Shown in pieces: positions 5,907 through 31,180 of a stretch of 64,000 bases of DNA (the first letter of the stretch is position 1; each line of letters opens with the position of its first letter). The DNA lies in IMG/VR virus record IMGVR_UViG_3300037312_000268, positions 23,418-87,417 of that record. The stretch is one strand, 5' to 3'. Made by a program: the position numbers and the translations under genes. The notes under the pieces are model-generated. The model ran no database searches. It saw nothing but the letters and a program-made list of their open reading frames with translations, and had not been told where the DNA came from. Source of the DNA: a virus. Lineage: Duplodnaviria > Caudoviricetes.

Positions 5907-6854
5907 TTACTTCCCCGTATTCGTAAGGCTGTTATCTTTGTTGTGTATAGAATTGTTACTGCGCGACCTATTCATTTTACCACAATCAACGCACTTGTGG
6001 ATGTCGAATTCGGAAACGCTCGTGTAGTACTTCTTATCAATCACGGTGAGGTGTTCACTGCCGCAACACACACAACGCAGTTTTCCAGATGGCTCGTACA
6101 GTGCTACGTTTGGATGTGTCTTGCTCCAATGACGCAGGCGCATATACACCTCTTCCAACACCACAACATCTTGAATATTGTACGTCAGCATCTCTTCAAA
6201 TGCCTCGTCATCCATCGCCATACAGCGAGTCCACAGTTCAAATCCGCTATGGCTGGCCTTGCGGTGCAGACCGAGATATGCAGCAATGCTATCAAGACTG
6301 TTACTAGGGAAGCGGAACTCTGCCTTAGCAATCTTAAGCGTGTCAACAATCTTACTAGGTGCAGGTGGAGTCATACCAAGGGCAACCATGCGTGTTTTGA
6401 TGAGCGGAATGTCAAATTTCTGAGCGTTATGTGCAACACACAGGTCTGCTTGGCTCATCAGGTCGGCAAGCTCTTGCACCAACACTTCATCATTCCGTGC
6501 CTCGTAAATTCGATTTGAGATGATTGTAGGCTCACCAAGCCATTTAGCAGAATAAGTCAGCAGATAACCCTCGTGCACAACCTGCTTTTGGCTAACATTG
6601 TTGTCCCAACGGCCCCAAACGTATGCCGTGGTGGGCGCACACTCAATGTCAAGAAGAAGAATCTTTGCTGTGGTGGGAACGTTACCCTCAACAGGATCGA
6701 CATCAACTTTCTTAAATTTAAAATACTTACGCAAGTAGTCACTCACAGTCGATTTGGCAACACCAATCTGACGGCTGATTTCACGCCACGACATATCGGG
6801 GTTGTCGTTTGCCATCTTCACTGCTGCAACGGTCCACTCTTCTTGTTCAATCAT
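5907..6854 (-). CDS. DEDD/RNase H-like 3'-5' exonuclease with N-terminal HTH and C-terminal Zn ribbon
   Basis: LLDIEC, AHNAQKFD, YNIQDV motifs; C-terminal CxxC..CxxC. Confidence 0.85.
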   Translation of the reverse strand: MIEQEEWTVAAVKMANDNPDMSWREISRQIGVAKSTVSDYLRKYFKFKKVDVDPVEGNVPTTAKILLLDIECAPTTAYVWGRWDNNVSQKQVVHEGYLLTYSAKWLGEPTIISNRIYEARNDEVLVQELADLMSQADLCVAHNAQKFDIPLIKTRMVALGMTPPAPSKIVDTLKIAKAEFRFPSNSLDSIAAYLGLHRKASHSGFELWTRCMAMDDEAFEEMLTYNIQDVVVLEEVYMRLRHWSKTHPNVALYEPSGKLRCVCCGSEHLTVIDKKYYTSVSEFDIHKCVDCGKMNRSRSNNSIHNKDNSLTNTGK

Positions 6855-20842: not shown

Positions 20843-22045
20843 TCATGAATTCTCCCTACTGTCAAAAATCAATTTATCTACAAAATCTACTACCTCTTGG
20901 TAATACTCGTAGTAAGTCGCTTCCGTTTTAAACCCCTCAATGTCTTGTGGATTGCAGGGAAATCGCTTTTTGACTACCTGCTCAATATTCCACGCTTGTT
21001 GACCTGTAACATAGAATATTTGTGTTGCGCCTATTTTAAGGCCAGCACGTTTAAGATTTCGTGCGTGAGTGTGCAGTCGACGGTCAGGTGTGTTTGAAAC
21101 ACCAAAACCAATAAAACTGTGGCGGCCCTCCACTTTCAGTATGTAAAAACCAGCGTCAACCCCTTTCTTATACCCTGACGTGGCACAATCAGGACACCTA
21201 TTTCCTACAGCCAGGAACGCGTGGATGTTAACAGGCCAGTTACCATGAACATCACAGTTTAGTACTATCTTACTGCCAACATTCTTGTAATTGTCCTCCC
21301 ACCCTACGAAGTTATACTTGAATCCCTCATATTCTAGAGTAGATTTTACTTGAAACTCTCGCTGTTGTGCCGTCCATCTATACGCCCTTGAACACCTGCA
21401 AGACTTCTTACCCACAGATAGGTTAGCATAGCTGGAATTAAACAGTCCACTACACAGCCCATTCTTTACAAAGATATCGTCACTACAAACACCGCAACGA
21501 TATTTCCACTTATTACCCCTAGATTTACATCTACCGAAAATTGTGCCAGAAGGAAACTTGCCCACCTCAAAAAATTTCTCTACGCAATGTTCGTCTGTGT
21601 ATCCATTCTTCTCCGAGATAGTATTATTTGCACACACCCTGCATCCCACTTTGGAGGTGAGTAAAGCACTTGCCCGTAAATTAGACCACTCATTTCCGTC
21701 TAAATTACAACGTAATTTTATCTTAGTTGAATTACCTGCGAAATCCTCAACAAATCCAAGAAACGTATAATTTCTTTTTGAGCATTCCCGTTCAACTCTC
21801 ACTTTACACTGAGCCAGTGTCCATCTGTACACTCTACTTTCGCAAGCACAGGGCGTTGAACCTCTTGTCAGGCTGGATTTAGCAATAAGAAACTGGCCAT
21901 CTCCAAACAATTCTGGATCAAGATTGCAGATGTGGCAAACAACTCTGTAGACCTTATCGTGTCCGCTGGACGTAACACCATCTTGACATATGACTTCTAT
22001 TTGGTTGCTTTTACCAAACCTTCGCCCAATAAAAGAGTCTGTCAC
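20843..22045 (-). CDS. Free-standing endonuclease with Cys-rich repeats and C-terminal GIY-YIG-like domain
   Basis: Repeated C..H/CxxC modules; FYILK..IGFGVS...RL..H. Confidence 0.75.
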   Translation of the reverse strand: MTDSFIGRRFGKSNQIEVICQDGVTSSGHDKVYRVVCHICNLDPELFGDGQFLIAKSSLTRGSTPCACESRVYRWTLAQCKVRVERECSKRNYTFLGFVEDFAGNSTKIKLRCNLDGNEWSNLRASALLTSKVGCRVCANNTISEKNGYTDEHCVEKFFEVGKFPSGTIFGRCKSRGNKWKYRCGVCSDDIFVKNGLCSGLFNSSYANLSVGKKSCRCSRAYRWTAQQREFQVKSTLEYEGFKYNFVGWEDNYKNVGSKIVLNCDVHGNWPVNIHAFLAVGNRCPDCATSGYKKGVDAGFYILKVEGRHSFIGFGVSNTPDRRLHTHARNLKRAGLKIGATQIFYVTGQQAWNIEQVVKKRFPCNPQDIEGFKTEATYYEYYQEVVDFVDKLIFDSRENS

Positions 22046-22233
22046 ATAGCCTCCAGTCGAGCTTTAAGCCTCCGCTTGCTGACAATCTTACGGGCCATTT
22101 GAATCTTCTCAACCATGTCGCCCCTACCTTTATTTCGGTAGTATGCTAGCATGGTTGAAATCACTGGTGCTTTAGTCACTTCGATGTGATCTGCAAGTTC
22201 ATCAATTGAACATTCTTGATAATTAAAATTCAT
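22042..22233 (-). CDS. Small helical protein coupled to the endonuclease (paralog of 30169-30357)
   Basis: Direct sequence similarity; 4 nt overlap with endonuclease start. Confidence 0.75.
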   Translation of the reverse strand: MNFNYQECSIDELADHIEVTKAPVISTMLAYYRNKGRGDMVEKIQMARKIVSKRRLKARLEAM

Positions 22234-22261
22234 AGTAAGATTCCTTTCGTCAGAAACCTTA

Positions 22262-22290
22262 ATTATAACATCTTAATACAATCTTGTCAA
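22262..22290 (-). promoter_or_regulatory. Consensus sigma70 promoter
   Basis: TTGACA-17-TATAAT. Confidence 0.85.
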
Positions 22291-23361: not shown

Positions 23362-23586
23362 CACTTTTTCCCAACAGGGCACTGAAACTCGTCTGCAACA
23401 ACTACGATAGGAACAACAATAGTTTCGCTGAACACAATAGCAAGAAACGTATTCCATCCGGACAGCTTGTACTCAAGGTCAGGCTTCTTATCTTGCAGCA
23501 CACCGATGCATTCGCCGTATTCGGTTTTAGTTGTGCAACCTGCTGCGAGAATTGCGAACAGTGCACACAAAATAATACTCTTTCAT
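23361..23586 (-). CDS. Predicted lipoprotein; the RBS-linked ATG is one base out of frame
   Basis: Lipobox LAAG-C; ATG 23586 followed by 13 nt before the in-frame TTG. Confidence 0.6.
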
Positions 23587-28863: not shown

Positions 28864-29178
28864 TTACCAGATTTTGACTGCGTGAATTACACGTGGCTCA
28901 ACGGATTTGAAAATTGCTTTCCATCGCTCATGAGCATCCACAACATGATTGATTAGCGTGTCAGGGCTTTCGCCACCGATTTCAAAGCCAACGAACCAAT
29001 CTTCTCCACTATGGCAATCAAGACACATCGCACACATCCCTAGATGCGTACCACCATCACACATATCTGTAATCTGGTCTTCCGTCAAGTACGTGTTCTC
29101 TGCCAGAAAGTCTACAACTCGCCACTCTTTGCCGAACCGCTTACCGATTCCGAGGAAAGCTTCGTATTCGGTGCTCAT
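28864..29178 (-). CDS. Hypothetical protein
   Basis: 104 aa ORF with RBS. Confidence 0.65.
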   Translation of the reverse strand: MSTEYEAFLGIGKRFGKEWRVVDFLAENTYLTEDQITDMCDGGTHLGMCAMCLDCHSGEDWFVGFEIGGESPDTLINHVVDAHERWKAIFKSVEPRVIHAVKIW

Positions 29179-29189
29179 TCTCTTCTCCT

Positions 29190-29350
29190 TTAGTTATCTC
29201 TACAAAATCTATGCGAATCAACAACCCTGTCACATTTCAACCTACTAGCCCATGCAGGTGCAATGTCCTTGCGGAAGTAATACGTGTACCTGTCATCCAG
29301 TACGTGTAGCATACCTGACTTTTCCCATTGTAGCAAGAACTTTTTATTCC
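29190..29350 (-). pseudogene. Orphan 3' half of a SleB-like cell wall hydrolase
   Basis: Frame reads LLQWEKSGMLHVLDDRYTYYFRKDIAPAWASRLKCDRVVDSHRFCRDN*, which aligns with the C-terminus of 30417-30830. Confidence 0.7.
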
Positions 29351-29359
29351 GTAATATTG

Positions 29360-30172
29360 TTATGAGCACAGGCTGTAGGCAATTTTCTCTTCTACAAAAG
29401 AAATAAGATCATCATAATTATGGTAGCTAGTAGATTCTTCTATAAAACCTTTAACATTAATACCTGACTTGTAGAAATTTTTTCGTATTTCACGCTCCAT
29501 TGACAGTGCCATACTGCCCGTATTAAAATGAAAGAACTCCATTTCAGTCATTACGAAACCTTTTTTCCTGAGAGAACACTTATGTTGACGGATTCGATGG
29601 TCTACGCAACCGCTTATTCCATACCCTGTAAAAGACTCGCCTGTAACGTTGTTTACAGCACGAATTACGTAAAGTGCGCCGGGATTGTTTGCCTTGAAAC
29701 CTGTGGTGGAGCAACATGGACATCCCGCACCGTTCATAAAATTACCTATGGAGATTGTCCACTCGTAGTTTTTTACACATTTCAGCACCATCTTGGAAAG
29801 TGCGCCATGATAACCGTCTCTCCACCTTACGAACTCTACTCCATCACCACGCTCTTTTAGAATTTTATTTATTACGAATTCTCTTTGATCTTTAGTCCAT
29901 CTGAAAGCCTTAGAACAGCGACAAGAAAGTTGGCCTTTTCTAAGCGTAGCCTCTGCGCTCTCAAAAATACCATCACAAAGACCCGCATCTACAAATTCAT
30001 CATTAGAGCATTTGGGGCATTTGTATTTCCAATAATACAACCTTTTAGAGTTTTTCTCTGTGTCACTCGGCCAAAATTCAAAGCCTCCACCTATACTGCC
30101 AGCACGTGTAAACTCCGCTATTTTCCACTTCACCCATTCATCAAAAGAATGCTTAATTGAAGGCCATTTCAT
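29360..30172 (-). CDS. Free-standing GIY-YIG-like endonuclease (paralog of 20843-22045)
   Basis: GCPCC...LYVI..FTGYGIS...RI.QH aligns with the first copy. Confidence 0.75.
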   Translation of the reverse strand: MKWPSIKHSFDEWVKWKIAEFTRAGSIGGGFEFWPSDTEKNSKRLYYWKYKCPKCSNDEFVDAGLCDGIFESAEATLRKGQLSCRCSKAFRWTKDQREFVINKILKERGDGVEFVRWRDGYHGALSKMVLKCVKNYEWTISIGNFMNGAGCPCCSTTGFKANNPGALYVIRAVNNVTGESFTGYGISGCVDHRIRQHKCSLRKKGFVMTEMEFFHFNTGSMALSMEREIRKNFYKSGINVKGFIEESTSYHNYDDLISFVEEKIAYSLCS

Positions 30173-30357
30173 TGCATGGCTTCCAATTGTCGGAGCAATT
30201 TACGTTTCTTGACAATACGTCTTGCCTCCTTGATCTTCTCAACCATCTCTACAACACCCCTGTCACGGTAGTAGATAAGTTGCTGGGTGATCCTAGCAGC
30301 AGGGCTGACCTCCACAAAGTCTGCCAGTTCTTCAACAGTACAAGTCTGATAATTCAT
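30169..30357 (-). CDS. Small helical protein coupled to the endonuclease (paralog of 22042-22233)
   Basis: NYQ.C..ELAD..EV...YYR..G..MVEKI..AR.IV.KR.L...LEAM shared. Confidence 0.75.
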   Translation of the reverse strand: MNYQTCTVEELADFVEVSPAARITQQLIYYRDRGVVEMVEKIKEARRIVKKRKLLRQLEAMQ

Positions 30358-30383
30358 AATATCTCCAATCGTCCAAAGATGTT

Positions 30384-30412
30384 ATCTTACCACGACATTG
30401 AGTTGCTGTCAA
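30384..30412 (-). promoter_or_regulatory. Sigma70-type promoter
   Basis: TTGACA-17-TAAGAT. Confidence 0.75.
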
Positions 30413-30416
30413 GTAT

Positions 30417-30830
30417 TTATGACTTGCTACAAAAGTAGACTAGTTTTCCTATCTTAGAGACCTTAGTCATCTTATCAGCCCATTTGGGTGGCTCAATATC
30501 TGTACTGTAGAAGTGGTCAGCGCAAGGTGGTAGTACAGGGCGCATCCTACGCGATTCCTCATATCGTACCAACCAGTCTGGAGTAGTTTTCATCTTAATA
30601 TTCTTACGCCACCATGAAAATTGCCCTCGCCGAGACACAATCGCCCTACAACTCTTGTGCTGCTTTTGCATCCTGTGCTGCACCACTTCTATAACTCCTT
30701 TCACAGCGCGCAAGCTTTGGTTCTCAGCTTCACGCTTAGCTGTGTATGCTAGGCAGGTGTTGTCTGCCACCTTCGCTTGAGCGCTGCTGGAGAGCGCCAT
30801 CAGGAGCAAGATGGCTGAAGCTGTGCTCAA
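30417..30830 (-). CDS. SleB-like (Hydrolase_2) cell wall hydrolase with N-terminal signal
   Basis: CLAYTAKREAENQ, QFSW, P.WA C-terminal motif. Confidence 0.85.
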   Translation of the reverse strand: MSTASAILLLMALSSSAQAKVADNTCLAYTAKREAENQSLRAVKGVIEVVQHRMQKQHKSCRAIVSRRGQFSWWRKNIKMKTTPDWLVRYEESRRMRPVLPPCADHFYSTDIEPPKWADKMTKVSKIGKLVYFCSKS

Positions 30831-31180
30831 CTAACATCCTTCTCAATCGTCATCATCAGCCCCTCAAAATGTGGATGCATACCCAATCCAGTGTACGGTC
30901 CGAATATCTCCATCAAATTCCAAAGCTGGATTCGCAACGTTTCTCCTGCCACCTTCGTATCGATTTCATACCTGTCAGGAAGATTTAGATTTTTGTAACG
31001 GGCATTATAAATTTGTGCTCCGCCTTGCGTCAGCTTCACTTCTACAGTCTCGTTAAGATTGATTTCAAATTTCATCGCCCTTGATCCTCCATAGGAAAGC
31101 CCAATTCGTCCTTCGCCTTTTGTGTTGGCGTTCTTGTGTCTTCTACACTCATATACCCTCCTAATCAGTTAAGTGCAGCC

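Follow-up and report, generated by a model that had tools for sequence, protein, structure and literature searches.

We analyzed a 64,000-nucleotide (nt) stretch of DNA from a virus of the class Caudoviricetes (IMG/VR record IMGVR_UViG_3300037312_000268, positions 23,418 to 87,417; referred to here as the window). In one of its loci, a cell wall hydrolase gene, an endonuclease-bearing cassette, and a stranded piece of hydrolase coding sequence, which we call the orphan, lie side by side. The window is part of an 87,417-bp record with a completeness rating of 100%. On the minus strand, where all of the features described below are located, the order is an 82-amino-acid (aa) gene, the hydrolase gene, a 62-aa open reading frame (ORF), the endonuclease gene, the orphan, and a 104-aa gene.

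The 82-aa gene (positions 30827 to 31075 of the window) overlaps the start of the hydrolase gene and is 90% and 87.6% identical at the nucleotide level to its counterparts at L002 and L008, two of the loci from related phages that are designated here by L numbers. The hydrolase gene (30417 to 30830) encodes a secreted protein of 137 aa that matches phrog_938 (endolysin; E value, 7.5e-10). It also matches Pfam Hydrolase_2 (PF07486) over profile positions 7 to 100 of 100, with a score of 25.2 bits against a gathering cutoff of 27 (E value, 2.6e-5); a precomputed PF07486 match is present on 12 of 12 relatives. The hydrolase gene has a TTG start that shares nucleotides with the TGA stop of the 82-aa gene (TTGA; 30826 to 30833), and the same start is found in L008, L016, L017, and L018.

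The cassette begins with a promoter (30384 to 30412) and continues with the 62-aa ORF (30169 to 30357), the stop codon of which overlaps the start of the gene for the 270-aa endonuclease (29360 to 30172). A right junction of 14 nt (29346 to 29359) then leads from the endonuclease stop to the first codon of the orphan (29190 to 29345), which consists of a coding part at 29193 to 29345 and a stop codon at 29190 to 29192. Directly after this stop lies the ribosome-binding site (GGAG; 29185 to 29188) of the 104-aa gene (28864 to 29178), the usual direct follower of the hydrolase gene, which is 70% identical to its L002 homolog. The hydrolase, the small ORF, and the endonuclease are as an initial annotation of this DNA had described them.

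The orphan is the 3′ end of a different hydrolase allele

The initial annotation had also proposed that the unannotated frame after the endonuclease stop is the 3′ end of a hydrolase gene and that it should match the hydrolases of cassette-free relatives. The 137-aa hydrolases of related phages fall into two types that are about 35 to 39% identical to each other: type A, made up of the window protein and P0002 to P0006, and type B, made up of P0007 and P0009 to P0014. Both proposals were borne out with type B. The orphan protein is identical at 51 of 51 positions to residues 87 to 137 of P0009 (BLASTP E value, 2e-39), a 137-aa Hydrolase_2 protein encoded at L018, which is a cassette-free locus with matching gene order. 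Identity to P0007, encoded at the cassette-free locus L008, extends over 45 of 49 compared columns.

At the DNA level, homology between window positions 29347 to 29119 and L018 positions 1774 to 2002 is unbroken, at 84.7% identity, and takes in the orphan, the ribosome-binding site, and the start of the 104-aa gene. Because the homology runs through the orphan into the next gene, the orphan is in its native context. The orphan fell inside type B, with 100/100 support, in a tree built from the C-terminal 51 residues, and was identical to P0009. With a colinear, significant match and a native genomic context, the orphan qualifies as a type B hydrolase 3′ end. These sequence comparisons confirm that it is a true hydrolase 3′ end, from an allele class other than that of the intact gene upstream.

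The relationship between the orphan and the intact hydrolase of the window is more distant. The initial annotation had aligned the two directly, and the register of that alignment was right, with 12 identities in 49 columns of the multiple alignment. The direct match was not significant, however; BLASTP gave no alignment between the orphan and the intact hydrolase at E ≤ 100, and significance was reached only by way of the type B relatives. Since no such alignment was obtained, we rejected a recent internal duplication as the source of the orphan. A scan of the 59-aa ORF containing the orphan against Pfam and PHROGs gave no hydrolase match, and the exact orphan string had no match in IMG/VR. 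Judging from the coordinates, the orphan is out of frame with the endonuclease, and inspection of the sequence revealed no Shine-Dalgarno motif ahead of its first start codon.

The intact hydrolase gene is a three-part mosaic

The intact hydrolase gene consists of three segments with different affinities. The first (30757 to 30830), comprising the TTG start and signal-peptide codons 1 to 24, is type B-like: 67 of 74 nt (90.5%) are identical to L008 (type B), versus 74.3% identity to L002 (type A), and 23 of the 25 N-terminal residues match P0007, versus 18 of 25 for P0002. The second (30511 to 30756), comprising codons 25 to 107, is a type A body that holds the invariant Glu34. Its nucleotide identity is 84 to 85% to L002, L006, and L009, versus 41.5% to L008, and 55 of the 60 residues from 26 to 85 match P0002. 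The third segment (30417 to 30510), which adjoins the cassette, comprises the last 30 codons and the stop. It is highly divergent: its 94 nt are 51 to 54% identical to every relative, and 13 to 16 of 29 residues match. In the tree of the last 51 residues, the C terminus of the intact hydrolase fell within type A (100/100), where it branched off as the sister of all remaining members (98/96). The breakpoint that the initial annotation had anticipated in the intact gene is therefore present at codon 25, with 74% identity to type A before it and, from there on, 85% identity to type A and 41% to type B.

The mosaic protein retains the residue of every column that shows no or almost no variation between types A and B, namely C26, E34, R53, G69-Q70-F71-S72, L87, V99, L100, P115, W117, and C134. 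We take E34 to be the catalytic residue of the hydrolase family.

Breakpoints and age of the orphan

Two blocks of type B homology enclose the foreign DNA. Window positions 30841 to 30760 align with L008 positions 5991 to 6071 at 92.7% identity, and window positions 29343 to 29183 align with L008 positions 6261 to 6420 at 90.7% identity. The 189 bp between these two matches in L008 have become 1,416 bp in the window, and type B codons 25 to 86 are absent. The left switch falls just ahead of the Cys26 codon, within a patch of about 20 nt in which the two types hardly differ. On the right, clean type B homology begins at 29347 (compared with L018) or 29343 (compared with L008), and the sequence further upstream can be aligned only with insertions and deletions (indels).

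These boundaries qualify the claim that the cassette entered the gene in its middle, carrying a replacement 3′ half. The stranded old end and the breakpoint are both there, but the arrangement is not that of a simple insertion: the foreign piece spans codons 25 to 137, and type B codons 25 to 86 are missing. The idea that the orphan is the counterpart of the divergent piece linked to the cassette did not hold, as the orphan comprises 51 codons and the divergent piece only the last 30.

Among the 153 nucleotides of the orphan coding part, 12 differ from L018, none of them altering an amino acid (synonymous sites, 29.7; nonsynonymous sites, 123.3). Under neutral evolution, the probability of such a pattern is about 3e-9. 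The synonymous divergence is approximately 0.58, and the orphan frame contains no stops and no indels. That every difference is synonymous indicates that the stranding was very recent relative to the divergence of the window from L018. We estimate from this pattern that the time spent by the orphan as a pseudogene would be at most a few percent of that divergence.

The cassette is present or absent at a fixed site

Empty sites are found in relatives with either type of hydrolase, at L002 to L005 and L006 for type A and at L008, L016, L017, and L018 for type B. The identical site is filled in the window and in L007, and the cassette is thus present or absent at a fixed site among colinear genomes. 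In the cassette-free loci L002 to L005 and L018, the 104-aa gene starts 9 to 11 nt past the hydrolase stop (9 nt in L002 to L005). The L018 order of 82-aa gene, hydrolase gene, and 104-aa gene is that of the window minus the insert.

In L007, which carries a type A hydrolase, a 61-aa ORF and a gene for a 404-aa CapR endonuclease lie between the hydrolase gene and the 104-aa gene, with no orphan. The stop codon of this endonuclease gene occupies the place of the original hydrolase stop, and the ribosome-binding site of the 104-aa gene comes after it; the left junction is common to L007 and the window. The hydrolase C terminus reads S-K-S or S-S-A in alleles with a cassette, compared with S-x-D-N in empty alleles. 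Together, the L007 layout and these endings indicate that the usual insertion site is inside the last few hydrolase codons and not in the middle of the gene.

The same kind of cassette is found upstream of the hydrolase gene in L009, L019, and L021. At L009 (4995 to 5080), where the cassette is directly upstream, the signal-peptide region of the hydrolase is the most divergent among the type A alleles, with 8 of 24 identities to the window. It mirrors the divergent 3′ end of alleles that have the cassette downstream. The hydrolases at L021 (4444 to 4908) and L019 (8602 to 9006), both of which are IMG/VR contigs, form a third clade at the same locus, with 35% identity to type A and 41% to type B; the cassette upstream of each consists of a 62-aa ORF and a gene for a 251-aa endonuclease. 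At least three deeply divergent hydrolase alleles (35 to 41% mutual identity) therefore occur at this one locus among phages that are otherwise related, each flanked by a cassette in some genome.

The cassette pairs a small leader ORF with a CapR endonuclease

Every cassette starts with a sigma-70-like promoter. The window promoter has TTGACA, a 17-nt spacer, and TAAGAT, with TG ahead of the −10 box (scan match, 10/12). Four of the five cassette copies compared have ACTTGACAnnAACTCAATGT and a −10 box in common. The second cassette copy in the window (promoter, 63-aa ORF, and gene for a 400-aa endonuclease; 20843 to 22290) has a divergent TTGACA/TATAAT promoter instead. Over the 17 nt that follow the window hydrolase stop, identity to the L007 cassette at its left end is 89.5%.

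The small ORF is 76 to 84% identical among the four copies aligned and 55% identical to the second copy in the window; the endonucleases behind the small ORFs are only 30 to 37% identical, or 34 to 37% in one of the comparisons. The small ORF thus resembles a conserved leader behind which the nucleases are exchangeable. The 62-aa ORF matched no Pfam or PHROG family, apart from a weak match to the DpnI_C winged helix (E value, 0.024). We also considered that it might be a resident gene that served as a landing pad and dropped this idea, as it is unrelated to the 60- to 65-aa ORFs near the hydrolase gene in cassette-free genomes. A promoter and a 62- or 63-aa ORF precede every CapR endonuclease examined here (window 30169 to 30412 and 22042 to 22290; L007, 3197 to 3448 and 5381 to 5625; L009, 3650 to 3899; L021, 3295 to 3540).

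The 270-aa endonuclease matches Pfam CapR (PF21817; E value, 6.9e-22) in two stretches and phrog_681 (endonuclease; E value, 5.4e-42). All four paralogs match CapR. T5orf172 (PF10544) was matched by one of the four paralogs only, with an E value of 0.041, and the window protein had no match to it. In the predicted model, the C-terminal 110 residues form a β-β-α-β-α fold. An all-against-all structure alignment with the model of residues 160 to 270 gave its best fits, with modest Z scores, to GIY-YIG proteins (At-HIGLE, 6.8; Slx1, 5.9 and 5.8; UvrC, 4.1; I-TevI, 4.0). Residues Y168, G183, G185, S187, R193, H197, and E226 are invariant across the endonuclease paralogs. No clear match came from a Foldseek search of the PDB with the model of the full-length endonuclease, and a profile of the paralogs had no match among PDB sequences. 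By domain matches and predicted structure, the window protein is a CapR-domain protein of the homing-endonuclease type with a probable GIY-YIG-like fold.

The window endonuclease does not have roughly the first 135 residues of the 404- and 407-aa paralogs at L007. Among the endonucleases compared (window 29360 to 30172; L007, 5622 to 6836 and 3450 to 4673; L009, 3901 to 4995; L021, 3542 to 4297), length varies from 251 to 407 aa because entire CapR/treble-clef repeats are either present or missing; the window copy is without the first one or two. This loss of repeats resembles the in-frame repeat deletions reported for ICP1 gp174.

Neighboring genes and relationship to known phages

A DNA ligase gene (297 to 448 aa) is found between the 82-aa gene and the hydrolase gene in L002 to L005 and L008 and directly upstream of the hydrolase gene in L017 (ligase-site coordinates: window 30826 to 30831; L002, 3658 to 5004; L008, 4664 to 6004; L017, 4111 to 5004). 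It is absent from the window and L018, and none is directly upstream of the hydrolase gene in L006, L016, L007, or L009. Where the ligase gene is present, its boundaries overlap the neighboring start and stop codons. The pattern looks like whole-gene insertion or deletion at a hotspot.

The primase-helicase encoded in the window is approximately 60% identical to homologs in large Erwinia and Escherichia phages. Searches of GenBank phages with the region (megablast and blastn) and with the hydrolase (tblastn) gave no useful match; the sole GenBank phage match was a short stretch of the endonuclease in Vibrio phage P018-4 and RaK2-like phages. A search of IMG/VR for related loci, with the type A and type B hydrolases as queries, found none.

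A single recombination event between type A and type B phages probably formed the locus

We interpret the locus as the scar of one event, in which a type A hydrolase body and its cassette were copied into a type B phage, and assign this reading a probability of roughly 75%. The alignments establish the mosaic structure, the origin of each of its pieces, the existence of relatives with empty and filled sites, and the recent date. The donor would have had a type A hydrolase gene with a free-standing homing-endonuclease cassette inside its last codons, and the recipient would have had the L018-like order of 82-aa gene, type B hydrolase gene, and 104-aa gene. A single gene-conversion or recombination tract would then have passed from the donor into the type B genome. 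Its left crossover would have been homologous, located near codon 25 in the conserved patch where the signal-peptide region ends. Its right join would have been illegitimate, connecting the point 14 nt past the endonuclease stop to type B codon 86/87 without homology. The expected product is a complete chimeric hydrolase with a type B signal peptide and a type A mature domain. Type B codons 25 to 86 would have been lost, and an untranslated type B tail of 51 codons would have been stranded, keeping its native stop and the ribosome-binding site for the 104-aa gene.

A single tract would explain why an intact hydrolase survives although type B codons 25 to 86 are gone and why the orphan starts right after the cassette and ends in a native ribosome-binding-site context. 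Because L007 is filled and has no orphan, the orphan would be a by-product of one event and not a built-in feature of the element. We infer that the event was begun by the endonuclease cutting the recipient, that is, by one-sided homing, and not by ordinary recombination during coinfection. The hydrolase 3′ ends are divergent in both alleles that have a downstream cassette, with identities of 52 to 54% for the window and 60 to 66% for L007, versus 74 to 81% among empty alleles. Divergent 3′ ends would be expected if the recognition site were located there and carriers were immune; the two cases are correlative. The divergent last 30 codons may in this way protect the carrier from its own enzyme.

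Several points weigh against this account. A protein search with the endonuclease at E ≤ 1e-10 matched only the endonuclease itself and found no donor. Activity of the endonuclease and its cleavage of type B are presumed, and the 270-aa copy is without the N-terminal DNA-binding repeats of its paralogs. Type B is only 35 to 39% identical to type A, which makes it an improbable substrate for an enzyme suited to type A 3′ ends. It is also conceivable that the two breakpoints arose in separate events. Finally, exact searches of metagenome contigs with the right junction and the cassette left end gave no match, and the locus comes from a single metagenomic assembly.

The strict form of the model in the initial annotation, in which the element is built for insertion in the middle of the gene with its own replacement 3′ half and the orphan is the exact displaced counterpart, seems unlikely to us. 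It would account for the last 30 codons, which are far more divergent than the gene body and adjoin the cassette, for the same trend in L007, and for the S-K-S or S-S-A endings of cassette-bearing alleles versus the S-x-D-N ending of empty ones. The mobile ORFs of fungal mitochondria offer a precedent (PMC3630166). However, the 51-codon type B orphan is not the counterpart of a type A-like piece of 30 codons, the absence of type B codons 25 to 86 means replacement with deletion, and the L007 cassette is at the same site without an orphan. An assembly chimera, produced by a metagenome assembler that misjoined a type A strain carrying the cassette and a co-occurring type B strain, is highly improbable. 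The record is metagenomic, the arrangement is found only on its own record or records, the window proteins being listed on two contigs (JGI/IMG), and related strains with both alleles exist in nature. Nevertheless, a de Bruijn misjoin needs a shared k-mer, and none connects a cassette terminus with midgene type B sequence; clean identity begins only at an 8-nt A-rich run. The reading frame is complete, the gene spacing is correct, the native ribosome-binding site is kept, and the record is rated 100% complete, all of which argue against a misassembly.

A further alternative is that the orphan is under selection, being either translated by reinitiation at a GTG at position 29369 or kept for an internal signal that serves the 104-aa gene. 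The intact frame and the finding that 0 of 12 differences from the functional gene are nonsynonymous would fit such a role, as would the position of the GTG, 7 nt before the endonuclease stop and overlapping that stop, and a weak promoter-like site inside the orphan (29206 to 29233). A recent origin accounts equally well for the synonymous pattern, however, and the orphan encodes only the last 51 residues of a domain of about 110, without the signal peptide and without the conserved Glu34. There is no Shine-Dalgarno motif ahead of the GTG, and no other cassette copy has such a piece. We therefore give this alternative very little credence. Also quite improbable is a combination of two propositions: that the orphan tail is kept on purpose and translated by reinitiation for the benefit of the element or the phage and, separately, that the type A body and the cassette form a portable block. 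The 74-nt type B 5′ arm and the orphan flank this block, and ordinary homologous repair could, if the proposition were true, carry it into any type B phage. In that event, a complete foreign hydrolase allele would be spread by the endonuclease across a gap of 35 to 39% identity.

Discussion

The layout of the window locus can be compared with several known systems. Mobile endonuclease ORFs in fungal mitochondria make gene hybrids, as described for atp6 of Allomyces macrogynus and for atp6, atp9, cox2, and nad3 of Glomus in PMC3630166, which cites Paquin et al. 1994; some of these ORFs encode GIY-YIG endonucleases. As in those cases, the window has a gene body, a foreign in-frame C terminus, an endonuclease ORF, and a remnant of the native C terminus. 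Also as in those cases, the remnant protein is 100% identical to that of a close relative, with DNA differences that are all synonymous, and the inserted end is strongly divergent. The differences are that the window locus belongs to a phage, that its endonuclease has CapR repeats, and that its cassette has its own promoter and a 62-aa gene. Unlike in the fungal hybrids, the foreign piece is nearly the whole mature domain, from another clade at 35 to 39% identity. About 60 native codons are deleted, leaving a remnant of residues 87 to 137 beside a foreign part of 25 to 137, which is not the outcome of a simple insertion.

Intronless homing in phage T4 involves the free-standing endonucleases SegF, SegG, SegB, and MobE (PMC2988022, PMC2330249, PMC2790892). 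The window shares with it an intergenic free-standing endonuclease gene that some relatives have and others lack at one fixed site, as well as flanks that move along by coconversion and leave mosaic neighboring genes. For the T4 enzymes, cleavage and preferential inheritance were demonstrated by experiment, whereas the window case is known from sequence. To our knowledge, no gene fragment is left stranded in the T4 cases.

One-sided homing, in which the side without homology is joined illegitimately at a microhomology, has been observed experimentally in T4, according to PMC2988022, which cites Parker et al. 1999. It resembles our reading of the window locus in that homology is present on one side only and that the other junction forms, after resection, at a site with little or no homology. 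It is a way to reach a site that is not a proper target. In T4, a group I intron was used in an engineered plasmid-phage system, whereas the window locus would be a natural product.

The CapR-T5orf172 homing endonucleases of ICP1-like vibriophages sit at the boundaries of exchanged segments, as described in PMC10448857 and PMC8096241. They have N-terminal CapR zinc-finger repeats, a C-terminal nuclease domain of the GIY-YIG superfamily, and a repeat number that varies by in-frame deletion. The window endonuclease and its paralogs are similar in their location, in their CapR repeats, and in the variable repeat number, and they probably have a GIY-YIG-like C-terminal domain. Unlike the ICP1-type enzymes, the window protein does not match Pfam T5orf172, and only one paralog does so, marginally. 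The searched passages of the two papers make no mention of a conserved promoter with a 62-aa leader gene. At rhs/CDI toxin loci (PMC2935791), the old 3′ end is displaced by a new one and remains as an orphan further downstream. The likeness is one of layout only, as the genes and the selective logic (toxin/immunity diversification) are unrelated and no homing endonuclease is involved.

In the literature, we found no report in phages of a native 3′ end stranded behind a free-standing endonuclease, which is no proof of absence. Set beside these systems, the window locus is confirmed as an instructive example and not as a new principle. A practical warning for annotation follows from it: a short open frame that follows an endonuclease gene may be the remnant of a gene. 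Such orphans record the resident allele and date the event that displaced it.

If our reading is correct, the locus is a clean natural snapshot of a free-standing cassette moving from one phage to another although their target genes have diverged too far for normal homing. A single homologous arm and a single illegitimate join would have sufficed, and because the cassette dragged a whole foreign allele along with it, the host gene would have been rescued. A phage example beside those in fungal mitochondria suggests a general process, and this one would provide a concrete route by which complete, highly divergent alleles of a phage gene are swapped.

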